Below are positions 9,669 to 35,888 of a DNA stretch of 58,823 nt, one piece after another. The notes beneath the pieces are model-generated. The model ran no database searches, was not told where the DNA came from, and saw nothing but the letters and a program-made list of their open reading frames with translations. The first letter of the stretch is position 1, and every line of letters starts with the position of its first letter. The position numbers and the translations under genes are program-made. The stretch comes from Patescibacteria group bacterium (GTDB lineage Bacteria; Patescibacteriota; Minisyncoccia; Phycocordibacterales; Zambryskibacteraceae), in the NCBI GenBank assembly GCA_004322205.1, contig SCSN01000007.1, positions 1 through 58,823 of the forward strand. The letters run 5' to 3'.

Positions 9669-9777
9669 CACCCAGCACCATTTTTAAATATGAAATTATG
9701 TTTCATAAAAAATAATACAGTGCTAAAACAAACTTCTGGTGACCACGTAGAGTTGTTATTAAAAATGGTGCTGGGTG
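9669..9777. repeat. Family-B intergenic hairpin element (copy B3) between rpmI and rplT
   Basis: 19-bp perfect terminal inverted repeat cacccagcaccatttttaa / ttaaaaatggtgctgggtg flanking 71 nt. The CCCAGCAC core is shared with the elements at 30124 and 35791. Confidence 0.75.
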
Positions 9778-9815
9778 AAGATTTTTATATTCATTTCATT
9801 CATTAAAAATCAATC

Positions 9816-10160
9816 ATGACCCGAGTTAAAAAAGCAGTTCACGCCCTTAAAACCAGACGCAAAATTCTCCGCCAGGCAAAAGGCTATCGCTTTGCCCGCA
9901 GCAAAAAAGAGCGCGCCGCAAACGAAGCGCTTGTTCACGCCGGCAGTTACGCTTTTGCCCATCGCCGTGACAAGAAAGGTGACTTTCGGAGACTCTGGAC
10001 AGTGCGCCTGAACGCTCACCTTCGGGCGCTCGGACTCTCCTACAGCAAATTTATGGGTACGGTCAAAAAAAAGAAAATCGGACTGGACAGAAAAATCCTC
10101 GCTACACTGGCGGAAACTAAACCGGAAACTTTCAGAAAAATCGTCGAGAAAGTCTCATGA
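9816..10160 (+). CDS. rplT: 50S ribosomal protein L20
   Basis: 114-aa ORF, MTRVKKAVHALKTRRKILRQAKGYRF.. Confidence 0.95.
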   Translation: MTRVKKAVHALKTRRKILRQAKGYRFARSKKERAANEALVHAGSYAFAHRRDKKGDFRRLWTVRLNAHLRALGLSYSKFMGTVKKKKIGLDRKILATLAETKPETFRKIVEKVS

Positions 10161-10224
10161 CAAAAAATCCCCCGTTCGGTTTTTATCAAGAATTAAAGCG
10201 CTCGAGAAGCTTTTTTGCCAACTC

Positions 10225-13200
10225 CTACCAGCCCCAGCCGGGATCGATGTTCCAGGCTCGCAGACGGCCCCACCACACTGATTGGGGTATGATCGGCCCT
10301 TGATTCATGTTTCGCCCCAGCGCCATTCCATATATTGAACTCCTGTTAATTACCGTGTTCTTGATTGACATAAGTGGAACGCCGTCTATCCTGATTTCCA
10401 TAAGACCATCTGGAACATTCGTAGCAGACGATACTTTCATGTGTTCTCTGATATAATGCCACTGGCCGTTAGTAATTACGCTCCACTGAATACTTGCTGG
10501 ACCCCCCGACAGGAAGAATTGTTCATTGTCGGGCGGGCCTCCTGAATAATTTCTTCTCGGTGGATTGCCTAGCCCTTGGCTACCTACGACTAGACTGAAT
10601 CTTGATACGCTAGGATACACTCTTCCAAATAGGAATTTATAACCATTTGATGAGACTCCAGTACATTGTTGAACATAAGTTTCAAACCCGGGAGTGAATT
10701 TAAACCATCCTTCAAACCAAACTTCCTTTTCTTGTTTAGGGAATTGTATATTTCTTCCTATAGTATAATCGCGACAAAGATTTGGATCATTTGTTCGGTC
10801 TGGGAAATCGTATCGCATGCTCTTTCCTGTCATTCCTGGCGGAGTATCAGTATCAAGAGCAATCCTATTTACACCCTTATCCTCATTAGCACCACTCCAC
10901 ATTGGGTTCGGATAGGCGAGAAGATCTGCTGTTGTTGAATAATTACTAAAGTCTTCTTCTATCCAAGGTTGTACTCCTGCAGTTACCTTTATGAGAAAAT
11001 CTTCCACGCTCCAGCCGTCAGGAAGAGAGGCGTAATATATATTCCACCAATTATATCCACCTGCTGCTACTGGACCGCCTCTGACTGTGCCTTGAGCGCC
11101 CAAAGCTTGAGTCCCAAGCAGAGTGCCATTTGGCATAGCTCTGACGTTGAGGAGGTTGGCGGTGGTTTGGACAAAATCTCCAATTTGGAATTTGGTTGAA
11201 GACGGTTGTGTCACGGTTACGGTAGTGCTCTGGTTTGTGGTTCCCCCACTTCCGGTACATGCGAGAGTGTAGGTAGTTGTGACTGCGGGAGTAACTAATT
11301 GACTTCCTGATGCGCTAGTTAATGTCGTCCAAGGTGCGAAGCATGAAGTAGCATTTATTGAACTCCATGTGAGGGTTGAAGGGCCGGCTGTTATTGAGGA
11401 AGGAGAAGCAAAGAGAGTGACGATGGGAGCCGAGATACCACTATTCACCGCCGTTCGCCATCTTGCAATATAAACGTAAGCATCCTGTAAGATTGGACTT
11501 GGTGAACCGTTTGTTGGGTTCCAAGTTAATCCGCGGAAACCGGGATTGCCAGTAGGGGGAGTTATCATAATATTCTGAGCGTTTATTCTCCTAACTCCGT
11601 CAACCCACAACTCAAATGATCCATCACTTTGCCCAGGCGTTCCGGCTCGAATACGACGCTCCACCAAATACCATTTACCAAGTGGCAAAAGCGCAAACGA
11701 GGTCGAGTACTGCTGTCCCAAACCAGTGTACGCTCCACCAAATTGCGTTGCGAACCCAAATTTAAATGCGTTTGGACCGTAGAAGCCAATAAAGTGGTTC
11801 GTCAATCCATTGTTTGGATTCTGCAAATAAAATCCAAATTTCGCTCCATTATTCTGGGCTGGCTCAACATAAGCTGGGTCGTGCATTATATAGAAAGCAT
11901 CATAGACATCAGAAAACACTTGCGAATTAGCAAATTGCAAATCCACCCTGAATGGCGCCGCGCCAGCCGGAGTTCCAGCGCCATACTTTCCTTCCAAAAC
12001 TTTGGTTTGTCCCGTTGGAGACAACGGCAGACCTTTTGTCACCAAATCAGCAATCGTAAATCTTCCAGCTCCCGAAGTTATAGTCCATAGACCATTAGAG
12101 ATACTACCGGTTGGCGGGACAGTTGTATTAAATGTTTCGTCAGAAATTACCGTGTGCCCTGATGGTTGGTTCGGGAATTGTACTGGTGTCGGTGTTGGGG
12201 TTGGGGTTGGGGTTGGGGTTGGGGTAGAGCCAGACCAGCCGGGATCTTGATCCCAGGTGCGCACACGTCCCCACTGCACTCGCACAACACTGTTGGCGGT
12301 CTGCTGATTCATATTAGCTCCCAGCGACCAGCTCCAGATCTTGCCGCCCTGTGCTGAAACAATGCCAGAATCATACTGAAGCACTCCGTCAAGCCATACC
12401 TGTAAGATTCCGCTGGAACCGCGCTTGGCGTGAAATCGGAAAGTGTGCGGCTGATTATCGGCGTATTTAGCCCATGAAGGTTTATTTAAGGTGACCGGTG
12501 AAAAACCCGGAACCTCGTAGCTTGTTTGGTGCGTCTGGAAAATTCCGATCATGTTTCCGAACCGCTGTGCACCAGATGGAGGTTGGGGCGACGTGATACG
12601 CGCAAAGATATATTTGTATGCGCTGCTGCTCTTTCCTACGCACTCGGGTGCGTAGGTCTCAAAGTTCACGAGTCGCACTTCGAACTCCCCCCAGACTTCG
12701 TCCAAAGGACGGCCGGTTCCGCCCGCAACGCCCGTGCCAAAGTCCATGTTGGGACCAATTGAGTGATCTATACAATTAGCCGTAGCGCCACGTTGGAACT
12801 TGTATTCCATGTAAGCGCCGTTCGAACCGAAGCCGGGAATCCACTCTGAATCAAGACCCTTGGCAGGATCGTTGTCTATGTATTGGTAACGCAAGAAAAC
12901 ACTGTTCGGATCATCCGCAGGTTCGTTCGTCCAGACACCATTAGGATTGGAAGCGCTATAAATGTCCGAGAGCATAGCCGTCTTGGTATTCCAGCGGCTG
13001 AATTGAATATCTTGGAATGGCTGAACCGATGCAGAAGACACGCTAACCGTAGCAGATTGACTAGCACTTCCTCCCGCTCCTATACAAGTAAGAGTGTAAG
13101 TAGTGTTTACTGTCGGTGAAACTAATTGAGTTCCCGAGATTGCTTTTGTTCCTGACCATCCACTACTTGCCGTGCATGAAGTGGCATTGGTTGAGCTCCA

Positions 13201-14490
13201 AGTGAGAGTTGATGATTGGCCTGGTGTGATTGTGGTTGGTGGGGCGGTGAGGGTGACGGTAGGGGTAGGAGTCGGCGGAGAGCTGTAGACAGCACTGACT
13301 TTTGCTGCGTATGGGCAAAATCGCTTCCCCAACCATTGAGAAAGAGTGGACTCTACATAGGATGGTCTGGCATCACAAACTTCCATGAAGACCTGGCCTA
13401 GAACTATGGTGGAAGGATCAAGATGCCAGCTCCAAGGCGAATTAAATCCCCCGTTACTTGAATTAATAATACCACTGACAATCAAACTTCTTGACCCGTT
13501 AAGATCATTGAGCGCTTGTTGAACAGTGGCTGGATCAGTCATTTTAACAAGAAACGATTCATTCTGGTTGTCTATCATGACGTACTTGAAGTATTTTGCG
13601 GTAGTTTGAGTGGTGACTGTCACGGTTGCGCTCTGACTGGCTGATCCACCCGAGCCGGTGCAGGTCAGAGTGTAGGTGGTGGTAATTGTCGGAAAGAAAA
13701 TTTGGGAGCCGGAGATTGAGCGCGAGCCGCTCCAGCCATTACTTGCCGTACAACTTGTGGCATTGGTTGAGCTCCATGTGAGTGTTGATGATTGACCGGA
13801 AGTTATTGAGGAAGGAAAAGCGGAGAAGGTGAGAGTGGGTGAGGGGGTGGGAGTTGGTGAGGGAGATGGAATCTCTGAAGAAACAGTGACTGTCACGCCC
13901 CGGCTTGCAGTTCCCCCGCGGCCGGTGCAAGAGAGGGTATAGAGAGTGGTGGTGGTCGGGAAGAAAGATTGCTCGCCGGAGGTTGAACGTGACCCGTCCC
14001 ATCCGCCGGAAGCGCTACAAGAGGTGGAGTTGGTGGAGGACCAAGTCAGAGTGACAGCTTGACCTGAAGTAATAGCGGCCCGGCTAGCGCTCAAAACAAC
14101 GGACGGTTTTTCGGCTATCGGCTCTGTTCCCTTTTCAGAGGCGGTAGTGACGGTAACTGACTTTGAAACCGTACCGAAAGAAAGAGTGTAAGTGGTAGTT
14201 TGAAGAATGGGCTTGGTCACCTTGTCCCCTTTGTAATTAACAAAAAGGTTTGCAAACTGTCCGCCGTTCAATTTGCCGTCAGGACATGCGGAGCTTGCCT
14301 GCCAAGCGAGAACTACCTCCTGCCCCGCCGCGATTGAAGATGGGTTTGCAGTAAATGAGCTTATGGTGCAAAGCGATGAAGAAACTTCGGCGAGATTGCG
14401 CGAAGTGAGCGTGGAAATGAGAGTACTAATATTCTGAATAGCAAAAAGCAAAGCCGCCGCGATCGCCGCGGACAGGATTAAACGCTTCAT
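10225..14490 (-). CDS. Giant secreted multidomain surface protein
   Basis: 1421-aa ORF with a signal peptide. It has at least 6 copies of a ~90-aa Cys-pair Ig-like module (TLTWSSTNATSC..GW.GS....TTYTL.C.G.GG), an SH3b-like segment and PT linkers. Two paralogous ~260-aa jelly-roll-like modules end in WGR(V/L)R(T/A)W..DPGW, and a third related module ends YIARWRTAV. Confidence 0.85.
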   Translation of the reverse strand: MKRLILSAAIAAALLFAIQNISTLISTLTSRNLAEVSSSLCTISSFTANPSSIAAGQEVVLAWQASSACPDGKLNGGQFANLFVNYKGDKVTKPILQTTTYTLSFGTVSKSVTVTTASEKGTEPIAEKPSVVLSASRAAITSGQAVTLTWSSTNSTSCSASGGWDGSRSTSGEQSFFPTTTTLYTLSCTGRGGTASRGVTVTVSSEIPSPSPTPTPSPTLTFSAFPSSITSGQSSTLTWSSTNATSCTASNGWSGSRSISGSQIFFPTITTTYTLTCTGSGGSASQSATVTVTTQTTAKYFKYVMIDNQNESFLVKMTDPATVQQALNDLNGSRSLIVSGIINSSNGGFNSPWSWHLDPSTIVLGQVFMEVCDARPSYVESTLSQWLGKRFCPYAAKVSAVYSSPPTPTPTVTLTAPPTTITPGQSSTLTWSSTNATSCTASSGWSGTKAISGTQLVSPTVNTTYTLTCIGAGGSASQSATVSVSSASVQPFQDIQFSRWNTKTAMLSDIYSASNPNGVWTNEPADDPNSVFLRYQYIDNDPAKGLDSEWIPGFGSNGAYMEYKFQRGATANCIDHSIGPNMDFGTGVAGGTGRPLDEVWGEFEVRLVNFETYAPECVGKSSSAYKYIFARITSPQPPSGAQRFGNMIGIFQTHQTSYEVPGFSPVTLNKPSWAKYADNQPHTFRFHAKRGSSGILQVWLDGVLQYDSGIVSAQGGKIWSWSLGANMNQQTANSVVRVQWGRVRTWDQDPGWSGSTPTPTPTPTPTPTPVQFPNQPSGHTVISDETFNTTVPPTGSISNGLWTITSGAGRFTIADLVTKGLPLSPTGQTKVLEGKYGAGTPAGAAPFRVDLQFANSQVFSDVYDAFYIMHDPAYVEPAQNNGAKFGFYLQNPNNGLTNHFIGFYGPNAFKFGFATQFGGAYTGLGQQYSTSFALLPLGKWYLVERRIRAGTPGQSDGSFELWVDGVRRINAQNIMITPPTGNPGFRGLTWNPTNGSPSPILQDAYVYIARWRTAVNSGISAPIVTLFASPSSITAGPSTLTWSSINATSCFAPWTTLTSASGSQLVTPAVTTTYTLACTGSGGTTNQSTTVTVTQPSSTKFQIGDFVQTTANLLNVRAMPNGTLLGTQALGAQGTVRGGPVAAGGYNWWNIYYASLPDGWSVEDFLIKVTAGVQPWIEEDFSNYSTTADLLAYPNPMWSGANEDKGVNRIALDTDTPPGMTGKSMRYDFPDRTNDPNLCRDYTIGRNIQFPKQEKEVWFEGWFKFTPGFETYVQQCTGVSSNGYKFLFGRVYPSVSRFSLVVGSQGLGNPPRRNYSGGPPDNEQFFLSGGPASIQWSVITNGQWHYIREHMKVSSATNVPDGLMEIRIDGVPLMSIKNTVINRSSIYGMALGRNMNQGPIIPQSVWWGRLRAWNIDPGWGW
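12185..12226. repeat. Hexanucleotide microsatellite (GGKGTY)7 encoding a (PT)7 linker
   Basis: ggtgtc ggtgtt then ggggtt x4 and ggggta, in frame inside the giant ORF. Confidence 0.9.
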
Positions 14491-14562
14491 AAAAGAGAAA
14501 AGAGGTTAGCTTGTATCAAGAAGTCAACCTCGCCTTGAGATACAGTATAGGGCAAAAAAAGA

Positions 14563-15954
14563 TTAGAACAGTGGATAACTCCTCCCCCGCTCGGGGACAG
14601 TGGCTGAAATTCCCGAATAATCCCTTACTCTTTGGGCTAAAAAGAAAGATGACTTCGGCTCTCCCATAACCACAAAAACCTTCCGAAGAGTTCCCTTTGA
14701 ACTTTCGGCAAATTCAATCAAGTGCTCTGAATCCATATGAGCGGAATAACCCTCAATAATCTCAACCCGGGCTCGCACTCTGACTATCGCGTCATCAATC
14801 TTTACTTCGCGCACACCGTCCTGAATCCGCCGCCCAAGCGTTCCCGGAGCTTGGTATCCGAGAAGAAGTACAGTTGTCTTCGGGTCAGGCAAGAGATGTT
14901 TCTCGTGCTCAACAACTCGTCCGCCAGTCGACATACCCGAGCCGGCAATAATGATTTTGGGGTTTGGAACAGAAATAATGTTTTGAGATTCCGCCACTCG
15001 AGCGGTTTCCTTGAGTTTGGGGAAACGAAAAACATCGTCGCCGGCCGCCATTTCTTGGCGAATCTCGGCAGAGTAGAGCGAAGAAATTGATTCGTAAATG
15101 CGGGTGATTTTTATGGCGAGCGGCGAGTCAAGAAAAACCGGAATGGAGGGGATCTGCTTTTCTTCAACCAGGTGATTAAGCTTGTGGAGGATGGTCTGGG
15201 TTCTTTCAAGAGAGAAAGCGGGAATCAGAAGTGTGCCGCCCCGCTCGATTGCCTCCCGCACCACCGTAAGAAATTTCTCTTCTCTTTCCTCTCGCGATTC
15301 GTGATTGCGGTCGCCGTAGACACTCTCAATGACAAGATAATGGATTCCGCCCGGTGGCGCTATTTTATTTTGAAGCGTCGAGTTTGTGTTGCCAAGATCA
15401 CCAGTGAAAAGCACTCGCATAGTCTCCCCCCTCCGCCCGACAACAAACTCAAACATGCTTGAGCCGAGGACGTGACCGGCATCGCGGACTGCAACTTCCA
15501 AATCTTTGCTGAAAGAAATCTTTGCCCCGTAAGAAACTGTTTTCCACAAAGCAAATGTCTTTGCCACATCGCTCTCACCGTAGAGCGGATACACGCCCAC
15601 TTTCTCTGCTCCAGTGACAAGTAAATGCAAAGCGTCAGCAAGCATGATTTCAGAAATTTTTTTCGTCTCGGCCGTTGAATAGATGACTCCCCGGAACCCT
15701 TCCCGCACCAACTTGGGGATGCGGCCGATATGGTCAAGGTGGGCGTGAGTAACCAAGAGACAATCTATGGAAGCGGGGTCGTAGCCAAACGGCGCACGGT
15801 TTTGCCGCTCGTTTTCCGCGCCTTGAAATAAGCCGCAGTCTATAAGAACGCGGAGATGACGATACTCCAGAAGAAAATTTGCTCCGGTAACCTCGCCCAC
15901 CCCGCCGTGGAACGTGAGACGGGGACTATTTGTCTCCTGCATGTTGCGCTTCAT
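14563..15954 (-). CDS. MBL-fold / beta-CASP RNA-metabolising hydrolase
   Basis: 463-aa ORF with the HAHLDHIG metallo-beta-lactamase motif, then beta-CASP-like and C-terminal RNA-specificity regions. Confidence 0.85.
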   Translation of the reverse strand: MKRNMQETNSPRLTFHGGVGEVTGANFLLEYRHLRVLIDCGLFQGAENERQNRAPFGYDPASIDCLLVTHAHLDHIGRIPKLVREGFRGVIYSTAETKKISEIMLADALHLLVTGAEKVGVYPLYGESDVAKTFALWKTVSYGAKISFSKDLEVAVRDAGHVLGSSMFEFVVGRRGETMRVLFTGDLGNTNSTLQNKIAPPGGIHYLVIESVYGDRNHESREEREEKFLTVVREAIERGGTLLIPAFSLERTQTILHKLNHLVEEKQIPSIPVFLDSPLAIKITRIYESISSLYSAEIRQEMAAGDDVFRFPKLKETARVAESQNIISVPNPKIIIAGSGMSTGGRVVEHEKHLLPDPKTTVLLLGYQAPGTLGRRIQDGVREVKIDDAIVRVRARVEIIEGYSAHMDSEHLIEFAESSKGTLRKVFVVMGEPKSSFFLAQRVRDYSGISATVPERGRSYPLF

Positions 15955-16333
15955 TCGTTCGAAGAATAACTACATAGACCAGAGCAACGATGCCGCCCAG
16001 AGCGGTCATGACAATATCGAGCAGAGTATCAACAGTATAGCTTGAGGAAATAAATGTTACGCCAAAGAGAAATTCGAAAATCTCCCAAAAGATTGCGGCA
16101 ACAAGCGAGCTTACGATAGCCAGAAGCGTTAGTGCCTGCCAAGAAAGTTTTGCCACAATTCTGCGCACATACCAGAAGACCAGAAGCGCCACGAAAACGC
16201 CAGCCAGTGCATGCACCGGAAGATCGAACCACCAATAATTCCAAAAGAGAGAAAGCCGCAGAGCTTCAAGATAAAGCCAGATAAGAGCAAAGAGAAGCAC
16301 GACAACCGGTGCAAAGAAAATTCGTCCCGACAT
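15926..16333 (-). CDS. Small integral membrane protein (VanZ-like pattern)
   Basis: 135-aa ORF with 4 TM helices. The DLPVHALAG and WEIFEF...D..LD...ALGG patterns are reminiscent of VanZ-type proteins. Weak call. Confidence 0.5.
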   Translation of the reverse strand: MSGRIFFAPVVVLLFALIWLYLEALRLSLFWNYWWFDLPVHALAGVFVALLVFWYVRRIVAKLSWQALTLLAIVSSLVAAIFWEIFEFLFGVTFISSSYTVDTLLDIVMTALGGIVALVYVVILRTNEAQHAGDK

Positions 16334-16767
16334 AGCTCTACATCATTATGAAGTTAAACATCAAATTAAGATACCCACGTCTCCGTGGGTGCCTTAAGGG
16401 GGCTACTTGTGCATGTACCCTAGCGTAAACTAGGTGGGTGCCTGCAGGAGTGTCCGTTGGAGTCTGCTTTTGGCGGACTCGCCCCGACATTCCGATTGAG
16501 GCTCCCTGAAAAATAACTTTAATCTAGATAACATGCCAAATAACCCTATCAACATTGTAGTCCTACCGAGCAAGGAAAAAAGTGTTTATAGCGCATTAGA
16601 AAACATCGGGAAGAAAAAATAAAGTTAATAGCTGAAAATATCACGTTGACTCGGCTTTTTTCGGAAGGTCTTTTTCACTTCATGACAATTTCAAAATAGG
16701 CTTACTTGGGAGCTCGGCTCCCAAGTGCTAAAAAGTCTAACTTGGTCGGGGCTTGGCTGAAGAACCT

Positions 16768-18134: not shown

Positions 18135-18239
18135 TACAACAGCTGATCAGCTTCTTAGCTTTAATTAGCTTTTTAGCTCCACTTATTATAGCCCCCTTTT
18201 TTTAATTAGCTAACCAGCTAATTAGCTGAAAGCTTGTTT

Positions 18240-19951: not shown

Positions 19952-19955
19952 ATTG

Positions 19956-21476: not shown

Positions 21477-21526
21477 GCCAATATTATACGAACGATACGA
21501 GCGAAGTGAGCAAATAAAATTGAGCA

Positions 21527-21654
21527 CCCCCCACTAACTTTTCCACTCACCAGCCTCGATTTCTCGTCCCATGGACGAAAAATCATTTTTAATACCAGCA
21601 TGATATATAAATTATTCTTCATATAAATCATTGTTCTGAAAAGTTAGTGGGGGG
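21527..21654. repeat. Family-A intergenic hairpin element (copy A1) between rpsH and rplF
   Basis: 17-bp perfect terminal inverted repeat ccccccactaacttttc / gaaaagttagtgggggg. Internal hairpin tcgtcc-cat-ggacga. Conserved aaatcattgttctgaaaagt end. Confidence 0.8.
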
Positions 21655-21705
21655 TAGAGTTTCGCAATCTCTGTTTGCTTCAGCAAGCAAACAGAGGGCG
21701 AATTC

Positions 21706-23384: not shown

Positions 23385-23450
23385 AATTTTGTTATGAGCG
23401 AAGCAAATTGGAAAATGTGCTTAAAAACATAGTCACTTCATTCCTTGTTT

Positions 23451-23822
23451 TTATACCACCTCTGGCGCCAGCGAAATAATTTGCTGAAAGCCCCGCTCCC
23501 CTAGCTCTCGCGGGACGGGACCGAAAATGCGCCCCGCCACCGGCTCACGCTTTACCTTATCAATGACTATAACAGCGTTCTCATCAAAGCGAATATAGGA
23601 GCCGTCGCTTCGGCGGAAGGGGTATTTCTGGCGCGCCACTACAGCGTACAAAATATCTTTCTTCTTGACGGGTTTGCGCGGCTGGGCTACTTGAACAGAA
23701 AGCACAACCACGTCACCGATCCGGGCGTAGCGCTTGCGCGATCCTCCGAGCACTTTGAAAACTCTCCCGATTTTTGCGCCGGAGTTATCTGCAATTTTGA
23801 CAATAGAGCGTGGTTGGATCAT
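23451..23822 (-). CDS. rplN: 50S ribosomal protein L14
   Basis: MIQPRSIVKIADNSGAK.. The ATG at 23822 lies inside the longer track ORF. TATAAT at 23829-23834 is 6 nt upstream. Confidence 0.95.
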   Translation of the reverse strand: MIQPRSIVKIADNSGAKIGRVFKVLGGSRKRYARIGDVVVLSVQVAQPRKPVKKKDILYAVVARQKYPFRRSDGSYIRFDENAVIVIDKVKREPVAGRIFGPVPRELGERGFQQIISLAPEVV

Positions 23823-23863: not shown

Positions 23864-23990
23864 CCCCCACTTACTTTTCCCCTCAAAACAAGCGATTTTT
23901 TGTCTTGCAGACAAAAAATCATTTTCAATTCTTGCACGTAATCTAAATTAACGTTTTTGTAAATCATTGTTCTGAAAAGTAAGTGGGGGG
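23864..23990. repeat. Family-A intergenic hairpin element (copy A2) between rpsQ and rplN
   Basis: Terminal inverted repeat cccccacttacttttc / gaaaagtaagtggggg. Internal 12-bp perfect hairpin gattttttgtct-tgc-agacaaaaaatc. About 85% identical to copy A3 by eye. Confidence 0.85.
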
Positions 23991-25975: not shown

Positions 25976-25978
25976 ATT

Positions 25979-26393: not shown

Positions 26394-26400
26394 ATTCTCC

Positions 26401-26440
26401 ATGAAAATACCCCAGCGTCCGCTTATGCGGCGCGCTGGGG
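26401..26440 (-). terminator. Hairpin terminator at the 3' end of the inserted gene
   Basis: CCCCAGCG..CCGC-ataa-GCGG..CGCTGGGG followed by tattttc. It overlaps the stop codon at 26423. Confidence 0.65.
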
Positions 26441-27070: not shown

Positions 27071-27130
27071 GGTTGTCTCCTCCAAAGTTGGTGGACAATA
27101 ATGGGATTAATTTCTAGGAACTCTTCTCTA

Positions 27131-27160
27131 ATTATATCATAACATATAATAATTTGTCAA
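27131..27160 (-). promoter_or_regulatory. Near-consensus sigma70 promoter of the inserted gene
   Basis: Minus strand: TTGACA (27155-27160), 18 nt, TATAAT (27131-27136). Confidence 0.6.
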
Positions 27161-27189
27161 TACCAAAACCAGCCCCTTGTTTAGGGCTG
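27161..27189 (-). terminator. Hairpin plus U-rich tract after rplB
   Basis: CAGCCC-taaacaag-GGGCTG followed by gttttggtatt on the minus strand. Confidence 0.55.
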
Positions 27190-27235
27190 ATTGATGTTTG
27201 CAAAACCCAAAGCCAAAGACACGAAGCTTAAAGTC

Positions 27236-28075: not shown

Positions 28076-28121
28076 GTTAGAGATTGTTAGTGAGCGAACG
28101 CGAGCTTACAAGACTCTTACA

Positions 28122-28249
28122 CCCCTCACTTACTTTTCCTCTTAAAATAAGCGATTTTTTGTCTGCAAGACAAAAAATCATTTTCAACTCTTGCGTATAA
28201 CCCAAACTAACATTTTTGTAAATCATTGTTCTGAAAAGTAAGTGGGGGG
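28122..28249. repeat. Family-A intergenic hairpin element (copy A3) between rplW and rplB
   Basis: Terminal inverted repeat cccctcacttacttttc / gaaaagtaagtgggggg (one G:T). Internal hairpin gattttttgtct-gca-agacaaaaaatc. Confidence 0.85.
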
Positions 28250-28277
28250 TTGAGTAATTTATATTCACTTCGCTACG

Positions 28278-28640
28278 TTAAATTACTTCAATCTTCTCTC
28301 CCGCTTTCAAATAGACATACGCCTTCTTGCCGCCGGCCTTCATGCCGCGTCTGCGCCTGCTAAAAATTTTCTTGCGGGGAACATAAGTTACGGCGACTTT
28401 GCGCGGCTTGACCTTGTAGACAAACTCAACCGCTTGGCAGATATCGCGCTTCGTTGCTTCGGGAGAAACTTCAAAAACATAGACATTATCGGCCGTTTTG
28501 TCGGTCGCCTTCTCCGTCACTCGCGGGCGAATGAGAATGTGATCGAGAGCGCGAGAGGGAGTAACGCTTGATTCAGCGCGCTCCGGCGCTTTCTCCTCTT
28601 TCTTCTTTTCTTCCCTCTTCTTTTTACCAAAAAGAGCCAT
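28278..28640 (-). CDS. rplW: 50S ribosomal protein L23 with N-terminal Lys/Glu-rich extension
   Basis: 120-aa ORF, L23 core ILIRPRVTEKA.. Confidence 0.93.
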   Translation of the reverse strand: MALFGKKKREEKKKEEKAPERAESSVTPSRALDHILIRPRVTEKATDKTADNVYVFEVSPEATKRDICQAVEFVYKVKPRKVAVTYVPRKKIFSRRRRGMKAGGKKAYVYLKAGEKIEVI

Positions 28641-28652
28641 GGTTCTATGGTT

Positions 28653-29417
28653 CTAAAGAGCCGCCGCGCGCGCTCTCCTCCGGCGCTCTACGCTGCGCTT
28701 CGGCTTCTTTTGTATAACCGCCGGCTCGGCTTTATCGACCGGTGTCTCAATCTTTGCTCCTTTCCTCACGGCAAGAAGAGAAAAAGAGTTCGCCGGATCA
28801 ACTACGACAATCCCCTTGTACTTGAGGAGAGTAAGCGGGCTGACATTGCGAATCTCTTCGACTTCGATGTTGCCAAAGTTGCGAAAGCCACGCTCAACTG
28901 CATCGCTCCTCTGCGGCAGAGTGAGAAGAAAGGCATTTTTCTTTCGGTTGGCAATTTCCTTGAACTCGGCAATTTTTCCGAGAGCACTGACAGCTTTCTT
29001 CGCCTCTTTCGTTTTGGGTGCCGGCAGATCAAGTTTGTCGAGGAAAATTATCTCTGCGTCGCGCCGCTTGGCGGAGAGGATAGTGAACAGTGCTTTGGTT
29101 TTCATCTTGCGGTTGACTTTGCGCTCGTAGCTCTTCTCTTTGCGCGGACCGTGCGTCACCCCGCCGCCAACCCAAATGGGCGAGCGGATGGAGCCGTGCC
29201 GCGCTCTGCCGGTTCCCTTCTGCCGCCAGGGTTTTCTGCCGCCGCCGCGGACTTCGCCGCGGGTTTTGCTGTGGGCGGTGCCTCGGCGCGCTGAAAGCGC
29301 CATCGAGCGAGCAACTTGATGCACTAGGTCGGCGTTCCATTTCACACCGAAAATATTTTCAGGCAGTTTAACCTTACCCGCCTTCTCTCCCTTTTGATTA
29401 TAGACAACTGCTTCCAT
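28653..29417 (-). CDS. rplD: 50S ribosomal protein L4 with C-terminal extension
   Basis: 254-aa ORF, GGGRKPWRQKGTGRAR motif. Confidence 0.95.
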   Translation of the reverse strand: MEAVVYNQKGEKAGKVKLPENIFGVKWNADLVHQVARSMALSARRGTAHSKTRGEVRGGGRKPWRQKGTGRARHGSIRSPIWVGGGVTHGPRKEKSYERKVNRKMKTKALFTILSAKRRDAEIIFLDKLDLPAPKTKEAKKAVSALGKIAEFKEIANRKKNAFLLTLPQRSDAVERGFRNFGNIEVEEIRNVSPLTLLKYKGIVVVDPANSFSLLAVRKGAKIETPVDKAEPAVIQKKPKRSVERRRRARAAAL

Positions 29418-29453
29418 AATTTAAATTCGAAATCCGAATATCGAAACTCGAAA

Positions 29454-30092
29454 CTAAGAGTTTTTTTGCGTTTCGCGCTTCGTGCTTCGGATTTCAACAA
29501 GCGTTCCCTTTCGACCCGGCACCGCACCCCCCACCAAAAGAAGATTTTGCTCGGGATCAACCTGTACCACGGTAAGGTTCTTGACTGTTACCCGCTCTCC
29601 ACCCATCCTGCCCGCCATCCGCATCCCTTTGGGAACTCTTGTCCGGAGCCCCCCGCCGATTGAACCGGGCTCGCGTTCCGAGTGCTTCTGACCGTGGGTG
29701 CGCGAGCCGCCGGCAAAGCCGTGCCGTCTTACCACCCCCTGAAATCCTTTTCCTTTCGAAATGGCAGAAACCGCCACGGTATCACCTGGCGAAAATATTG
29801 AGACGTCAATCTTATCGCCAACGTTCAGCTCCATTGGTTCGCCCCGGGAAGAAAACTCCTTGACCTGCGCAAAGTTTCCCAACCCTTTAAAGTGACCGCG
29901 CTCCGGCTTAGGAATCCTCTTTTCCTTACGCACCCCAAAGCCAAGCTGGACGGCAATGTAGCCGTCGCGCTCCTTGGTCTTAACCTGCGTTACCACCGAA
30001 GGGTTTGCAGAAAGAACGGTTACGGGAATCACTTTGCCTTCATCGCTGAAGACCTGGGTCATCTTTTGTTTTTTCGCCAGTAGAAACTTCAT
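29454..30092 (-). CDS. rplC: 50S ribosomal protein L3
   Basis: 212-aa ORF, typical L3. Confidence 0.95.
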   Translation of the reverse strand: MKFLLAKKQKMTQVFSDEGKVIPVTVLSANPSVVTQVKTKERDGYIAVQLGFGVRKEKRIPKPERGHFKGLGNFAQVKEFSSRGEPMELNVGDKIDVSIFSPGDTVAVSAISKGKGFQGVVRRHGFAGGSRTHGQKHSEREPGSIGGGLRTRVPKGMRMAGRMGGERVTVKNLTVVQVDPEQNLLLVGGAVPGRKGTLVEIRSTKRETQKNS

Positions 30093-30123
30093 AGATTTTC
30101 TTGAGCGGAGCGATTAGAAAATC

Positions 30124-30228
30124 GTGACCCAGCACTTACTCTTCCGAGGCGCACACTACTATATCTTTATGTTCATTCCAATCTCTGTAGTCCTGTGCGA
30201 GTGAAAATCTTCGTAAGCGCTGGGTGAC
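30124..30228. repeat. Family-B intergenic hairpin element (copy B1) between rpsJ and rplC
   Basis: Terminal inverted repeat gtgacccagcacttac / gtaagcgctgggtgac (14/16). Flanks tagaaaatcg and a(t/c)atagtctcc..ggatcctt are shared with copy B2. Confidence 0.75.
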
Positions 30229-30270
30229 TTAAAACATAGTCTCCGCCAGCTGGCGGATCCTTGTTTTAAT

Positions 30271-30636
30271 TCACATCAATTTCACGTCAATATTCACTCC
30301 CGACGGCAAATTGAGATTAGTGAGTGATTCCACGAGCTTCGGTGTGGGATTTATAATATCGATGAGCCGCTTGTGGATCCTCATTTCAAACTGCTCTCGC
30401 GCGTTTTTGTAGATGAATGAGGAGCGGTTGACCGTATATTTCTTTATCTCTGTCGGAAGCGGTATGGGGCCTTGAACCTGCGCATCGTAGCGCAGAGCGG
30501 TGTCAATAATCTGCTTCACCGAAAGATCAAGAATTTTGTACTCGTAGGCACAAACTCGAATGCGCAGTTTTGAGATCGGTTGCTCTTTCTGCGCGCCCCG
30601 TTTCCGGGGGGCTTTTTTCGTACTCTCTTTTGCCAT
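30271..30636 (-). CDS. rpsJ: 30S ribosomal protein S10 with N-terminal extension
   Basis: 121-aa ORF, S10 core [14 protein letters not shown].. Confidence 0.95.
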
Positions 30637-30724
30637 AATGTCTCAACAAACAACTCACAACCTACGACCTAAAAAACGCGCTCTGTTTTCAGTTGTTGGT
30701 TATTGACCGTTGGTTGCTAATCAA

Positions 30725-31933
30725 CTACGCGATGACCTTGGTAACAACACCTGCTCCAACAGTTTTTCCTCCTTCTCGGATAGCGAAACGCTGCTGCGCC
30801 TCGAGCGCCACCGGCGCCACCAGCTTGACTTTGACGGAGACGGTATCGCCGGGCATGACCATTTCCACTTTTTCGGGCAACGTTACATCACCGGTCACAT
30901 CGGTAGTGCGAATGTAGAACTGCGGCTTGTAGCCGGTGAAGAACGGCGTGTGCCGCCCGCCTTCCTCCTTTTTAAGAACATAGACCTCCGCCTCAAACTC
31001 AGCGTGCGGGGTAACGGAACCGGGTTTGGCAATGACCTGACCGCGAGTGACATCTTCTTTTTTGAGACCTCGTAGAAGCACGCCGGCATTGTCTCCGGCA
31101 ATACCCTCATCGAGGGATTTGTTGAACATCTCAATGCCGGTGACTGTTGTTTTTTGGGTCGGATGGAGGCCGACAACCTCTACTTCTTCGCCGACCTTAA
31201 CCTTGCCTCGCTCGATGCGCCCGGTAACCACCGTGCCGCGACCCTCGATCGAGAAGATGTCCTCAACCGGCATAAGAAAGGGCTTGTCCACTTCCCGAAC
31301 CGGAAGAGGGATATAGGAGTCGAGTGTCTCAACAAGCTCCATGGCTTTCTTGGCCCACTCGTCATCGAGAGACCTTGATTCAAGCGCCTTGAGACCCGAG
31401 CCGCGGATGATCGGCGCGGCAGCTCCGTCGTAGGAGTATTTATTGAGAAGTTCGCGGATTTCTTCTTCAACCAAATCAATGAGTTCCTTGTCAGGAACCG
31501 TATCGCACTTATTGAGGAAGACGACGATTTTGGGCACCCCAACTTGGCGGGCGAGAAGAATGTGTTCGCGGGTTTGGGGCATCACGCCGTCGGTGGCGGC
31601 GACCACCAAGACCGCCCCGTCCATCTGGGCCGCGCCGGTAATCATGTTTTTGATGTAATCAGCGTGCCCCGGTGCGTCGATGTGGGCGTAGTGGCGGTTG
31701 GGCGTCCAATACTCGGAGTGATGAAGGGCAATGGTAATGCCGCGCGCCTTCTCCTCGGGCGCATTGTCAATTTTCTCCACCCCCTCAACGCGTGCGCCGT
31801 ATCCTTTGTCCTTACTCATATCAAGAACGTGGAGAACGGCGGCAGTCAGAGTGGTCTTGCCGTGGTCAACGTGACCGATGGTGCCGACGTTAATGTGCGG
31901 CTTGGTGCGGTCGAACTTTGCAGATTCTGCCAT
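30725..31933 (-). CDS. tuf: Elongation factor Tu
   Basis: 402 aa, [18 protein letters not shown]. Confidence 0.98.
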
Positions 31934-32301
31934 GGTTAGTGGATCTTACTTTCGAAAATTCATCGCACGAGAGAGTGGTGAATTTCCAAAACTAAGTAAA
32001 TGAACTATTGATAATGTTGTTTACTATTAACAAACAAGCCACCCCATCATGCAAAGGGATGGACGCGAAAAATGCGTGGGGAATATCATAGCAAAGCAAA
32101 AAGAATAGTCAAATCGGTATTAGTCACGCCACGGCGGGGTTGTCACCGCGTCAAACTCTCCAGTTTCTATAAAAACGAAAACCCCAACGAAACATTCGCA
32201 TGAATACCCCTTGCTTGTAAACTGTCACAACTAACTCATTTAATATGTAATATCCGATCATAGCACTTCTCAAATTCATTGCGACCGCGTATAATTTGTG
32301 T

Positions 32302-32862
32302 ATGGGTGAGATTGAGAGAAAATCAGCGAGAAAACTAAAATACAAAAACATTCAGAATGCCGTTTTGGCAGTCGTAGCGACAGGTGTGTTTCTAAGTGCC
32401 GCCATTTTGGCTCCAAATGCTTTGCAAGTTTTTTCAAAACTCGGAATTACCGGAAAAAGAAAACGGGAAGGTGTAAGCCGAGCTCGCGACAGACTACTTG
32501 AAAAAGGAATGTTGAAGAAAGATGAAAAAGGATATTTGCAAATAACAAACAAAGGGCGCATCAAGCTTGGAATGAGACACGAGCTAGTGAGAAAGCCAAT
32601 GCGCTGGGACAAAAGGTGGAGAGTTCTTATATTTGATATCCCAGAAAAAAGAAAGGAGGTTAGGAATAAAATACGACAGATGTTAATTTCGGCTGGATTT
32701 CTTAGATTACAGGATAGCGTGTGGGTTTACCCGCATAATTGTGAAGACTTTGTGGCTCTTCTAAAAGCAGATCTGCACATTGGCAAAGATCTGTTGTATC
32801 TGCTTGTTGACTCAATAGAAAACGATAAGTATTTAAAAGAAGAGTTTGATTTGAAAAAATAG
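32302..32862 (+). CDS. PaaX-like / Cas2-fold (ferredoxin-like) putative regulator
   Basis: 186-aa protein. The C-terminal WDKRWRVLIFDIPEKRKEVRNKIRQMLISAGFLRLQDSVWVYP matches the PaaX C-domain/Cas2-like pattern. TATAAT (32290-32295) is 6 nt before the ATG. Confidence 0.65.
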   Translation: MGEIERKSARKLKYKNIQNAVLAVVATGVFLSAAILAPNALQVFSKLGITGKRKREGVSRARDRLLEKGMLKKDEKGYLQITNKGRIKLGMRHELVRKPMRWDKRWRVLIFDIPEKRKEVRNKIRQMLISAGFLRLQDSVWVYPHNCEDFVALLKADLHIGKDLLYLLVDSIENDKYLKEEFDLKK

Positions 32863-32903
32863 CTATCTGAATATTAACGTTTTAATAATCAATCAACTAT
32901 CTA

Positions 32904-32937
32904 CCACAATAATTGCGCCATGGCGCAATTATTGTGG
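32904..32937. terminator. 34-bp perfect palindrome, bidirectional terminator between convergent genes
   Basis: ccacaataattgcgcc-at-ggcgcaattattgtgg. Confidence 0.75.
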
Positions 32938-32959
32938 TAAAGTTTTCCCAACTTACCAA

Positions 32960-35128
32960 CTACTTTCTCGCTTCTATTATTTCTTGTGCAACATTTTCCG
33001 GGACCACCGCATAGTGATCAAATTCAATATTAGCAACGCCGCGGCCCTCCGTCATGGAACGCAGAGTGGTAATGTAACCGAAAAGCTCCGCCAGAGGAAC
33101 CTGCGCTCGTATGACCTTCATCTCACCGCGCTCTTCCATTCCCTCAACCTGGCCGCGCTTGGCAGAGAGGTTGCCCGTCACATCACCCATGAACTTCTCG
33201 GGCATAACTACTTCTACTTTCATAATCGGCTCGAGCAAAACCGGCTTGGCACGCTTAGCGGCGTCTTGAAATGCTTGTGAGCCGGCGATTTTGTAGGCGA
33301 TTTCCGAAGAGTCAACTTCATGGTATGAACCGAAAAGGAGCTCCGCGGAAATGTCGGTCATTTTGTAGCCGGCAATCACCCCGCGCTCCATTGCTTCTCT
33401 AATCCCCTTCTCAACTGCCGGAATAAACTCCTGCGGGATAACGCCGCCTTTAATTGAGTTAATAAATTCAAATCCCTCATAGACAGAAACATTCTTGGGG
33501 ATTTTGGCCTGCGGGTCGCGCTTCTCCAGAGGTTTGATGTTGATTTTGACATGTCCGTACTGCCCGTGGCCGCCTGTCTGGCGAATATATTTGGCTTCCG
33601 CTTCAGCCGGGGCAGTAATTGTCTCTTTATAGGCAACTTGGGGCTTGCCGACATTTGCTTCAACGCTAAATTCACGCTTCATCCGATCAACAATGATTTC
33701 CAAGTGAAGCTCGCCCATACCCATGATGACTGTCTCACCTGTTTCCTGATCACTTTTGATTTTAAAAGTCGGGTCTTCATCGGAGAGACGTTTGAGCGCC
33801 AAGCCCATTTTCTCCTGGTCGGCTTTGGTTTTGGGCTCAATGCGAAGTGAGATGACCGGCTCGGGAAAGGCAATAGCTTCAAGCACTATGGGATTCTCTT
33901 CGTCGCAGAAGGTGTGCGAAGTCTTTGCGCTCTTAAGCCCAACCGCCGCGGCGATTTCTCCGGCAAAAACTTTTTTCACCTCTTCGCGGCGGTTCGCCTG
34001 CAGGCGGACAATGCGTCCCAGGCGCTCTTTTTCCCCGGTGGTGGAATTATAGATATAACTTCCCGCCTCCACCGTCCCCGAATAGACACGGAAGAAAGTG
34101 AGTTGCCCGACAAAGGGATCAGCTTGAAGTTTGAAGGCTAGAGCTGAAAACGGCTCGTCGTCGGAAGCGTGGCGAAAGATTTCTTCGCCCGTTCGCGGGT
34201 CAATACCTCTAATTGGCGGAACATCGAGAGGGGAAGGCAGATAGTCAGCCACCGCATCAAGGATAAGTTGTACTCCTTTATTTTTAAGAGCAGAACCGGC
34301 AAGCACCGGAAAAATTTTGTTTTCAATGGTGGCGTTCCTTAGAGCTCGCTTAAGGTCCGCTAGAGCAATTTCTTTTCCTTCGAGATATTGGTGTGTTAGT
34401 GTCTCGTCGGTTTCAGCGATTTTTTCGACGAGATCGTGGTGATAACGCCGCGCCTCCGCCTTGAGATTGTCAGGAATTTCTTTCTCAACAACTTCCTCAC
34501 CGAGCTTGCCTTCAAAGTGATACATTTTCATTCGCAGAAGATCAATCACTCCCTCGTGTTTTTCTTCCTCGCCGACGGGTAGCTGCAAACGCAGAGCGTT
34601 TTTCGAGAGGCGGGCAAGGATTGACTTGAAAGAGCGCTCGAAGGAGGCACCGGTGCGGTCAAGCTTATTTATGAAGCAGATTCGCGGTACTCGCGCCTCT
34701 TCAGCGTATCGCCAATTGGTCTCTGACTGCGGCTCCACGCCGGCAACACCGTCGAAAACAACAACTGCGCCATCGAGTACGCGAAGAGAGCGTTTCACTT
34801 CAACCGTAAAATCAATGTGTCCCGGAGTATCAATAATGTTAAAACGGTATTTATTTTCCTTGCCCGACGCAGTCTTGGCGAAGTCGGGTCCTCTTTGTAA
34901 GTAAGTTGGCGCCCAAAAGCAAGTAATTGCGGCGGCAGTAATGGTAATGCCGCGCTCACGCTCCTGCTCCATCCAGTCGGTGGTGGTATCACCCTCGTGG
35001 ACCTCGCCTATCTTGTGCTGGGCGCCGGTGTAATACAAAACGCGCTCGGATGTCGTTGTTTTCCCGGCGTCAATGTGGGCGATGATACCAAAGTTCCTGA
35101 CACGCTCGAGTGGATAGTCGCGTTCCAT
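32960..35128 (-). CDS. fusA: Elongation factor G
   Basis: [25 protein letters not shown].. from the ATG at 35128. The track ORF extends spuriously to 35296. Confidence 0.97.
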
Positions 35129-35173
35129 AAAATTTAAAGTTAAGTAATTTTTGTATTTCCGTCTAAGCGAAGA

Positions 35174-35266
35174 TTGTTTTTGAAAAAGTCTTGCGCGGCC
35201 GCGCCATGGCGGGGCGAGCAGAGCAATCCCGCAGTAGCGGGATATGCGTGCTCTTTTCAAAAATAA
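35174..35266. repeat. Imperfect long inverted repeat in the rpsG-fusA spacer
   Basis: ttgtttttgaaaaagtcttgcgc / gcgtgctcttttcaaaaataa arms enclose GC-rich sub-hairpins (atcccgc-agta-gcgggat). Confidence 0.55.
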
Positions 35267-35276
35267 TCTGAGCGAC

Positions 35277-35747
35277 TCACCATGCGAAGTGGGCAAAGGC
35301 TTTATTGGCTTCCGCCATCTTGTGAGTGTTTTCCCTTTTCTTTACCGCCTCGCCCTCGTTCTTGGCTGCGAGCATAATTTCGTCAGCAAGCTTGGCATGC
35401 ATGGGGGCGCCCTTGCGGCGGCGTGCCGCTTCAACAATCCACTTCATGCCGAGAGCCGAGCGGCGCTCCGGCCGCACCTCGCGCGGAATCTGATAGTTCG
35501 CGCCGCCGACGCGGCGGGAGCGAACTTCCATATTGGGAGAAGTATTTTTGAGCGCCGTGTCGAGAACTTCGAGAGGACTGTCGGTCTTCCCTTTTTCCTT
35601 GATGATCTCGAGAGCGCCGAAAATAATTTTTCTAGCTGTGTTTTTCTTGCCTTCGCGCATTACATAGTTCACGAGCTTTGTCACCTTGGTAGAGTTATAG
35701 ATAGAGTCGGGGAAAATTTCTTTCTTATTCTTGATTTTTCTTCGCAT
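35277..35747 (-). CDS. rpsG: 30S ribosomal protein S7
   Basis: 156-aa ORF, typical S7. Confidence 0.96.
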
Positions 35748-35790
35748 GGCTGATTTTCTTAACGAGCTTGGCGAGTTTTAGAAAATCGCC

Positions 35791-35888
35791 ACCCAGCACT
35801 TACAAAAAGTGAACTAATTAAAGAGGTCCTTATAGATTTTCCAAAATGGTCTGATTGCATAATGTATATATTGATGTAAGTGCTGGGT
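35791..35888. repeat. Family-B intergenic hairpin element (copy B2) between rpsL and rpsG
   Basis: 14-bp perfect terminal inverted repeat acccagcacttaca / tgtaagtgctgggt. Confidence 0.75.

Follow-up and report, generated by a model that had tools for sequence, protein, structure and literature searches.

The closest described counterparts of the element reported here are the repetitive extragenic palindromic (REP) sequences of Proteobacteria and the assemblies built from them, the bacterial interspersed mosaic elements (BIMEs) and the REP doublets forming hairpins (REPINs), which go with REP-associated tyrosine transposases (RAYTs). We compared our locus with published definitions of these elements (PMC3337134, PMC3733652), in which REP palindromes carry a conserved GTAG or CGTC tetranucleotide at one end (PMC3733652). 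The stretch we analyzed (58,823 nt; hereafter the window) is contig SCSN01000007.1 of assembly GCA_004322205.1, from a Patescibacteria group bacterium, and the spacers rpmI|rplT, rpsJ|rplC, and rpsL|rpsG within it each hold a large hairpin (B1, B2, and B3, together family B). On balance, these hairpins are probably the stem-loops at the center of a nonautonomous repeat that is composite and quasi-palindromic and resembles miniature inverted-repeat transposable elements (MITEs), REPINs, and BIMEs. Like REPs, BIMEs, and REPINs, the element consists of extragenic palindromes of ∼30–40 nt, paired in inverted orientation around a spacer to form a larger hairpin; it is a mosaic, modular composite in transcribed intra-operon spacers and is multicopy, with subfamilies within the genome. 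Unlike in typical REPs, its loop is conserved and its stems vary, there is no conserved terminal GTAG/CGTC tag, no RAYT was seen in the 10 window open reading frames (ORFs) scanned, and about a dozen copies were detected. Further differences are the strict polarity with respect to transcription, the abutment to start codons, and the host, a bacterium of the candidate phyla radiation (CPR) with a reduced genome.

A second group of counterparts comprises Correia/NEMIS (Neisseria), ERIC/IRU (enterobacteria), bcr1, and RUP/BOX, which are likewise nonautonomous, 100–200 bp long with inverted termini, located between co-transcribed genes, and able to form long mRNA hairpins. RNase III cleaves Correia hairpins, and ERIC influences the stability of mRNAs. 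Our element has no sequence similarity to any of these and showed no clean TA or other target-site duplication, and it folds into three hairpins with mutually complementary module loops; whereas those repeats insert in both orientations, this one has a single orientation. The intercistronic RNase III sites of phage T7 offer an analogy of working only: They too are hairpins exactly between cistrons of a long polycistronic mRNA, and the 19–24-bp stems here are long enough for RNase III, but each T7 site is unique and non-repeated, conserved, and of proven function, whereas ours are polymorphic repeats whose processing is putative. In Escherichia coli, the rpsL-rpsG spacer is the S7 autoregulatory site. 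That operator shares its intergenic position with one of our three copies, but the two have no Rfam or sequence relation, and the element here is not conserved in relatives and is present at many other spacers. Palindromic extragenic repeats and transcribed MITEs are well known as a kind; we found no earlier description of such elements in CPR bacteria in the literature searched.

Three large hairpins in ribosomal-protein operons

A preliminary description of the window had reported three hairpins with CCCAGCAC/GTGCTGGG arms, and all three were recovered at their original coordinates. B1 (9669–9777, + strand) lies between rpmI (9443–9643, +) and rplT (9816–10160, +) and has 19-bp perfect arms, CACCCAGCACCATTTTTAA (9669–9687) and TTAAAAATGGTGCTGGGTG (9759–9777), around a 71-nt AT-rich interior. 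B2 (30124–30228, − strand) lies between rpsJ (30271–30636, −) and rplC (29454–30092, −); 14 of the 16 positions of its arms, GTCACCCAGCGCTTAC (30124–30139) and GTAAGTGCTGGGTCAC (30213–30228), are paired, one mismatch is a G·U pair on the sense RNA, and the interior is partly palindromic as well. B3 (35789–35889, − strand), between rpsL (35932–36342, −) and rpsG (35277–35747, −), has 14-bp perfect arms, ACCCAGCACTTACA (35791–35804) and TGTAAGTGCTGGGT (35875–35888), around a 70-nt AT-rich interior, and is intact and contiguous in an independent 4147-nt Logan contig. The inner arms of the large hairpins thus span 14–19 bp. Fold z-scores were −6.39, −4.64, and −3.69 for B1, B2, and B3, with none of 200 shuffles folding as well in each case; the sense and antisense strands fold equally well. 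The CCCAGCAC 8-mer occurs seven times in the window against 1.12 expected (a count reached by none of 100 shuffles), and a relaxed arm pattern run over the window returned exactly three paired sites, namely B1, B2, and B3.

Each spacer is filled end to end by a three-part element

The element is about 172–184 nt long and spans the entire spacer, rather than having the extent of 98–109 bp originally given. The rpmI|rplT, rpsJ|rplC, and rpsL|rpsG spacers (172, 178, and 184 nt) are each filled by one structure, which in the direction of transcription runs from the stop codon through a 5′ module hairpin, the large hairpin, and a 3′ module hairpin to the ATG, 0–5 nt further on. The 5′ module begins 0–6 nt past the stop codon and has a loop of about AAGGAGCGAAGCGAC; it reads TAAGGAGCGTAGCGACTATGTAAATTAC in B1 and AAGGATCC-N10-GGAGACTATrTTTT in B2 and B3. 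The large hairpin has the base ACCCAG...CUGGGU (ACCC...GGGU) and a replaceable tip. The 3′ module is an AT-rich hairpin with a loop of about TAGTCGCTTCGCTC, and in B1–B3 its 3′ arm stops 1–4 nt before the ATG; its arms are GATTTTCT/AGAAAATC in B2 and B3 and GATTTTTA/TAAAAATC in B1. Both flanks that had been described as common to the rpsJ|rplC and rpsL|rpsG copies were confirmed: the string AyATAGTCTCC-N10-GGATCCTTrTTTT, and the 8-bp hairpin GATTTTCT/AGAAAATC, which stops 1 nt short of the rplC start codon and 4 nt short of the rpsG ATG.

The 5′ module of B1 (9632–9668, +; GTAAATTTATAAGGAGCGTAGCGACTATGTAAATTAC) overlaps the rpmI stop codon (9641–9643), and its 3′ module (9780–9815, +) consists of GATTTTTA and TAAAAATC around TATTCATTTCATTCAT, followed by AATC and the rplT ATG at 9816. 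In B2, the 5′ module (30229–30270, −; TTAAAACAAGGATCC-GCCAGCTGGC-GGAGACTATGTTTTAA) adjoins the rpsJ stop codon (30271–30273) and contains an inner GC hairpin (30242–30257), and the 3′ module (30094–30123, −; GATTTTCT and AGAAAATC around AATCGCTCCGCTCA) ends 1 nt before the rplC ATG (30092–30090). The 5′ module of B3 (35890–35931, −; AAAAATAAGGATCC-CGCGGCTACA-GGAGACTATATTTTT) adjoins the rpsL stop codon (35932–35934); its 3′ module (35752–35787, −), GATTTTCTaa and ttAAGAAAATC around AACTCGCCAAGCTCG, is followed by AGCC and the rpsG ATG (35747–35745) and matches the rpsG|fusA element of a related locus, L010, at 15 of 15 and 13 of 13 nt.

We built a covariance model of the 3′ module hairpin (R1), which returned 19 matches, including the 3′ modules of B1 (48.6 bits) and B2 (42.6 bits). 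The loop is conserved as (T)TCGCTTCGCTC, with variants CTCACTTCGCTC, TCGCTCCGCTC, and TTCATTTCATTC, while the stems vary yet stay complementary (GATTTTCT/AGAAAATC, GATTTTTA/TAAAAATC, CAATATTAT/ATAATATTG, AGAGTCTTGT/ACAATCTCT, and AAGGTTTTT/AAAAACCTT). In the R1 alignment, which was fitted to the model and includes a few weak matches later judged false, 92.4% of the cells of the helix are paired, compared with 66.9% in shuffles; all nine pairs change on both sides, and shifting the partner columns collapses the signal. The weak matches in L050, L068, L041, L053 (position 7846), and L040 were false positives on inspection. Overall, the module hairpins are 30–38 nt long, have a 9-bp covarying helix, and are all intergenic.

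R1 also matches 5′ modules on the antisense strand, in the window at 9632–9669 (28.4 bits), 28252–28288, and 23423–23454 and in the loci L037, L209, and L010. The cleanest case is the tuf|rpsJ spacer of L010, where GAGCGAAGCGACTAT on the 5′ side is the exact reverse complement of ATAGTCGCTTCGCTC on the 3′ side. Judging from these matches, the 5′ module is related to the 3′ module in inverted form, which makes the whole spacer a single long imperfect palindrome.

All copies share one polarity

The copy in rpmI|rplT had been described as inverted with respect to transcription. This did not survive a leave-one-out test, in which we trained models without B1 and then scored both readings of it: The sense reading gave 17.6 bits for the left and 17.6 bits for the right flank, and the antisense reading 0.9 and 17.6 bits. 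B1 thus has the same orientation as B2 and B3, and its right flank, GATTTTTA..TAAAAATC-AATC-ATG, is the 3′ module found at both. Its left flank does resemble the reverse complement of the right flanks of B2 and B3, and it is this inverted kinship of the 5′ with the 3′ module that made B1 look inverted. The symmetry of the composite is imperfect: The A-run and T-run arms of the two modules are not mirrored, and the sense order is always A-run, loop, and T-run, then the large hairpin, then T-run, loop, and A-run before the ATG.

About 18 copies have this one polarity (seven in the window, four in contigs of the source metagenome, three in L010, one each in L018 and L055, and two in L209), and no independent antisense copy was seen. 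Every copy is placed between the stop codon of one gene and the start codon of the next. B1 is on the DNA strand opposite to that of B2 and B3, and the GC skew, a weak one here, keeps its sign between them; we infer that polarity follows transcription rather than replication.

Related copies in the same operons

The window holds three further large hairpins with different arms (ACCCCCCACTTACTTTTC; family A), all on the − strand, with the same kinds of module on either side and a conserved 94-nt interior that contains an inner hairpin (GATTTTTTGTCT..AGACAAAAAATC). They lie in the rpsH|rplF spacer (21526–21655; arms ACCCCCCACTAACTTTTC, 3′ module CAATTTTAT..ATAATATTGGC directly before the rplF ATG), in the rpsQ|rplN spacer (23864–23989; the 3′ module, CAATATTAT and ATAATATTGG around TATTCGCTTCGCTCAT, abuts the rplN ATG and scores 48.5 bits with R1), and in the rplW|rplB spacer (28121–28250; 3′ module AGAGTCTTGT..ACAATCTCT, then AAC-ATG). 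A short version of 65 nt without a large hairpin occupies the rplN|rplX spacer (23386–23450, −), where a 5′ module, AAACAAGGAATGAAGTGACTATGTTTTTAAG, is fused to a 3′ module, CACATTTTCCAATTTGCTTCGCTCATAACAAAATT, that runs into the ATG. Together with family B, this makes seven copies in 59 kb, all within translation operons. One frame of family A is open in two of three copies (59 and 63 amino acids, GTG start); we rejected family A as a gene owing to an in-frame TAA in the third copy (A1) and a weak codon-position bias (5/9/13).

Further copies were found in X1, the groundwater metagenome run that holds the window DNA at about 173–190× depth. Contigs of X1 were aligned to the three B spacers at 80% likeness and assigned to the same genome by depth only; those of matching depth (172–206×) add at least three B-armed copies, one family A copy carrying a B2 5′ module, and one short copy. 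A 2343-nt contig (205.6×) has B-type arms 218 nt apart and a 3′ module GATTTTCTAATCACTTTGCTCAAGAAAATC-TATC-ATG; a 1507-nt contig (172.6×) has a B2-like 5′ module at one end and a B-type 3′ module with its arm 932 nt on; a 1375-nt contig (179.1×) carries GTGCTGGGTG and a B1-type 3′ module, aligned as far as the ATG; a 4261-nt contig (178.2×) holds a short version in which GGAGCGACTAT is fused to a B1-type 3′ module; and in a 120-nt contig (192.1×), a B2 5′ module is joined to a family A arm. At least two of the further copies have the 3′ module of B1 at ∼88% identity, and two (on the 2343- and 1507-nt contigs) have that of B2 at ∼90%. With these contigs added to the window set, there are at least six B-armed copies, and modules and hairpins have been reassorted among copies. 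In total, ∼12 copies were seen for the window genome; a loose scan for hairpins with the loop motif was too noisy for counting copies.

The window sequence itself is identical in independent Logan contigs at 173–180× depth, and contig L081 (SRR8426596) carries B3 unchanged. A joint at which the sequence goes back 177 nt (30267 to 30091) was rejected as a tandem or circular form; it corresponds to the 1507-nt contig, in which the 5′ module and another B-type 3′ module lie 932 nt apart. Low-depth X1 contigs (2–3×) match the B3 3′ module and the rpsG start (window 35744–35799) at 80%–95% identity and then diverge into different hairpin arms, so related low-abundance strains carry the same module with other hairpins. 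A metagenome-wide scan with CCCAGCRCN{70,100}GYGCTGGG, a pattern that proved too unspecific, gave only chance matches in high-GC contigs without arm extension. Likewise, 61 matches to the loop 15-mer ATAGTCGCTTCGCTC in viral contigs were judged unrelated, none having the context of an AT-stem hairpin; many of them read on the other strand as GGAGCGAAGCGACTATG, a string resembling a ribosome-binding site plus ATG.

Homologous elements come and go between close strains

The elongation factor EF-G places the window in Patescibacteria/Paceibacteria, near Zambryskibacteria (82% identity). Among 80 related Paceibacteria loci, the rpsL|rpsG spacer is mostly 0–40 nt long, and none of the 80 has CCCAGCAC-type arms. 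The best S7 relatives in the protein collection are only 77%–80% identical; in the closest of them that share the synteny, rpsL|rpsG measures 5, 12, and 84 nt and contains no modules, and in L203, the one relative locus reaching rpsJ|rplC, that spacer is 34 nt and also free of modules. The element is thus multicopy and recombined within the window genome and absent from its closest relatives.

Homologous composites have a patchy distribution in other Paceibacteria (L010, L018, L055, L037, L209, and L273). L010 has them in rpsL|rpsG, rpsG|fusA, tuf|rpsJ, and rpsJ|rplC and after rplW, with modules nearly identical to those of B3 (GACTATATTTTTC, GATTTTCTAAAACTC, and GTTAAGAAAATCA); its arms, ACCCAGTTAAATGA/..TTTAACCGGGT, have the ACCCAG base of family B and a different distal part on both sides. 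Others stand before rplC (L018), before rplJ (L055), in L037, and before rpsS and a VTT/DedA gene (L209). In all, 10 or more distinct spacers hold the element, and the genes that follow them encode unrelated proteins.

Four loci (L010, L207, L272, and L273) come from close strains, with S7 proteins 99%–100% identical and a DNA identity of 88%–96%, and comparing their spacers showed that homologous elements come and go at identical positions. The rpsL|rpsG spacer is filled in L010 (205 nt) and empty in L207 (11 nt) and L272 (12 nt); tuf|rpsJ is filled in L010 and L273 (142 nt) and holds 76 nt of unrelated sequence in L207 and L272; and rplW|rplB is filled in L273 (432 nt; also begun in L010) and empty in L272 (8 nt). 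At the orthologous rpsJ|rplC hairpin, L010 and L207 differ by a compensated change (CCCATC..GATGGG versus CCCGTC..GACGGG). Between copies that share their arms, the differences are blocks inserted at the tip of the hairpin (rpsL|rpsG versus tuf|rpsJ of L010; L273), which explains why B1, B2, and B3 have unrelated interiors. Two filled sites are flanked by A-rich direct repeats of 7–11 nt, which would fit a target-site duplication but are low in complexity and partly within the 3′ hairpin arm: AAAATAA and AAAAACTAA at the first (empty site AAAAATAA), and GAAAATAA and TAAAATCAA at the second (empty site AAAATTATC).

The same neighborhood holds other inserts. Between rpsG and fusA, L208 (10472–10662), L209 (10472–10729), and L210 (10472–10657) have a different long hairpin with strongly covarying stems and a conserved apical TCGCAGTACTAnnTGTACAGCT, which may be an unrelated structured leader of fusA. 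In L273 (10511–10855), an ORF of the 23S_rRNA_IVP family is inserted between rpsG and fusA, and L272 (7557–8501) has an IS30-like transposase gene (HTH_38 and rve domains) between an M50 peptidase gene and rpsL, with no visible link to the hairpin element. The str-operon neighborhood is an insertion hotspot in the L272/L273 clade.

Nature of the element

The observations resemble those that define known nonautonomous repeats. As in MITEs, copies are dispersed (seven in the window and at least five in X1) and have terminal inverted repeats, and homologous sites are found both filled (L010 and L273) and empty (L207 and L272). As in REPs and REPINs, the units are imperfect extragenic palindromes of 20–40 nt, two of them inverted around a spacer; the tag of REPs has no equivalent, GTAG occurring only in some 5′ modules (B1, L037, A3, and L209) and there within the loop, not at the base of the stem. 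The earlier suggestion of a mobile or strand-symmetric function thus stands insofar as this is one family that behaves as mobile elements do, being multicopy, lineage-specific, and polymorphic among homologues; the argument from opposite orientation falls away. A nonautonomous mobile repeat would spread by transposition in trans or by recombination between shared modules and land in the short, A-rich gaps of operons that are densely packed and strongly transcribed. Co-transcribed in the operon mRNA, the insert would fold back on itself into three hairpins and would be tolerated because the stop codon upstream and the start codon downstream thereby stay near each other, in organisms with genes that show no Shine-Dalgarno sequence. 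Nested insertions and deletions at the tip of the hairpin would have produced the variable interiors. The insert may secondarily supply RNase III-type processing or stabilizing hairpins, and the 19–24-bp stems could be RNase III substrates.

Several points weigh against mobility as the primary explanation. No transposase or RAYT was found in the 10 selected window ORFs that we scanned, and none of the RNA runs searched for window DNA holds the locus. The nearest genome in which presence or absence of the window copies can be compared is at 80% S7 identity, and the relatives at 77%–80% are all empty. There is no clean target-site duplication, the A-rich flanking repeats being of low complexity and overlapping the 3′ arm. 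The single polarity of ∼18 copies and a 3′ module that always abuts the start codon go beyond the order that a neutral selfish insert requires, and such order points to selection on, or function of, the RNA.

The alternative that this order suggests is that the element works first and foremost in cis, as a functional RNA device within the operon mRNA, with mobility secondary; we regard this as appreciable but rather improbable. The complementary module loops GAGCGAAGCGAC and GTCGCTTCGCTC could kiss, bracket the large hairpin, and join stop and start codons for Shine-Dalgarno-independent re-initiation; alternatively, the long stems would be RNase III processing or stabilizing sites, or a hairpin with its U-run a weak attenuator. 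Such a device would account for the polarity, which B1 keeps on the opposite DNA strand without a sign change in GC skew, and for a 3′ hairpin that ends 0–5 nt before the ATG in every copy, at genes without a Shine-Dalgarno sequence. It would also fit a loop conserved while the stems covary, the matched change in B2 (GCGGAG in the 5′ module and CTCCGC in the 3′ loop), the G·U pair on the sense strand of the B2 arm, and the one 3′ module before a non-ribosomal gene (L209). Yet the closest relatives manage with spacers of 5–40 nt, near-identical strains differ in presence, and neither the B1 subfamily (TTCATTTCATTC) nor B3 retains the loop complementarity. Moreover, sense and antisense strands fold equally well, the L010 arms have an A·C mismatch on the sense strand, and the large hairpins lack the features of terminators. 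A device retains some probability because strict polarity, ATG abutment, the conserved loop, and module-loop complementarity exceed what a neutral passenger needs. A bolder version, which we think unlikely, has the composite serve Shine-Dalgarno-poor CPR bacteria as a portable cassette for intercistronic expression: Two hairpins with complementary loops of 12–16 nt would kiss, clamp a disposable central hairpin, and set the ATG beside the stop codon for re-initiation across 180–430 nt; the conserved loop could instead be read by a dedicated protein. If true, the element would be both mobile and functionally self-compensating, and its strict polarity and exact stop-to-start placement would be explained.

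We give little credence to hairpin interiors that encode something, be it small peptides, independent small RNAs, or guide-like variable inserts between processing stems: Interiors do differ among copies with conserved arms, the family A frame is open in two of three copies, and several 5′ modules look like AAGGAG-N10-ATG, but about half of the 5′ modules have ATA in place of ATG, A1 has its in-frame stop and codon-position bias is weak, the B interiors resemble nothing in 1.5 Mb of related DNA, and the interior differences of L010 and L273 are simple nested insertions. Still less probable, and strongly disfavored, are autoregulatory operators of ribosomal proteins (S7 at rpsL|rpsG, L20 near rpmI|rplT, or a regulator of the S10 operon), captured or mimicking rRNA. 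Only position speaks for them, and the capture of an S7 regulatory spacer that had been considered conceivable is not supported, given relatives whose orthologous spacers, such as rpsL|rpsG (5, 12, and 84 nt), lack the element, and given its recurrence at 10 or more spacers before genes for unrelated proteins. The comparison with Rfam leaders pointed the same way: At gathering score, the window gave only a tmRNA and two tRNAs, with nothing on the B or A elements, and at E ≤ 10, nothing matched the B elements or any 5′ or 3′ module. A family A copy (21528–21652) matched the model of the sxy 5′ untranslated region, which is not a ribosomal-protein leader, with 26 bits where the gathering threshold is 70 (E = 1.4), and we took this as chance. 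Chance palindromes or an assembly artefact, finally, have nothing in their favor beyond the short shared 8-nt core and are already refuted by the 8-mer enrichment (7 versus 1.1 expected), fold z-scores down to −6.4, identical sequence in independent Logan contigs at 173–180×, and the additional copies and homologues in the source metagenome and other genomes; the question of whether the shared core could be explained by chance, raised with the preliminary description, is thereby answered. Of these alternatives, none seems to us as probable as a nonautonomous mobile repeat.

Other identities were tried and set aside. The large hairpins were not called as intrinsic terminators, having loops of at least 70 nt and a U-run that starts 2–6 nt past the stem; the sole terminator-like part is a small GC hairpin within the 5′ module of B2, and it is so on both strands. 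Integron attC sites do not fit, as the arms CACCCAGCAC/GTGCTGGGTG contain no RYYYAAC ... GTTRRRY core sites and the adjoining genes are core ribosomal genes rather than cassettes. On inspection, GACTATGT was rejected as the −10 box of a promoter, lacking a −35 partner.

Neighboring features of the window

A 188-amino-acid ORF with a PaaX_M (Cas2-like) domain (E = 4 × 10−21) lies antisense in the 1-kb tuf-fusA gap (32296–32862, +), and the same domain family occurs near the str operon in L201, L202, and L208. Inside the S10/spc cluster, three strong sigma-70-like matches on the − strand (27160–27131, 26393–26366, and 22334–22305), one TTGACA-18-TATAAT at 12 of 12 positions and two at 10 of 12 with a TG extension, suggest internal promoters of this long operon. 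The protein encoded at 14563–15954 (−) is RNase J-like, of the beta-CASP/metallo-beta-lactamase type (Beta-Casp E = 1 × 10−34; RMMBL), and is a candidate mRNA-processing enzyme near the ribosomal operons. At the far end of the window, a 292-nt spacer (54292–54600) upstream of an 1135-amino-acid ORF (54600–58007) has several strong hairpins (−132.7 kcal/mol) with arms of 28 nt (54292/54383), 22 nt (54423/54452), and 18 nt (54563/54583), unrelated to families A and B in sequence.

Significance

Genomes of CPR/Patescibacteria are small and tightly packed and are usually thought to be repeat-poor. Here, the most conserved and highest-expressed operons (S10/spc, str, and infC-rpmI-rplT) are where a modular palindromic repeat has expanded, turning spacers of 5–40 nt into structured inserts of 170–430 nt that differ between strains whose S7 proteins are identical. 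At these points, the assembly graph is broken by the repeated modules, which may add to the difficulty of assembling and binning ribosomal-protein operons; the elements also provide strain-level markers for the uncultured organisms that carry them. They constitute a natural system for studying how downstream cistrons are translated without a Shine-Dalgarno sequence across long structured spacers, and if polarity and loop complementarity prove functional, they would represent a new type of intercistronic RNA device.

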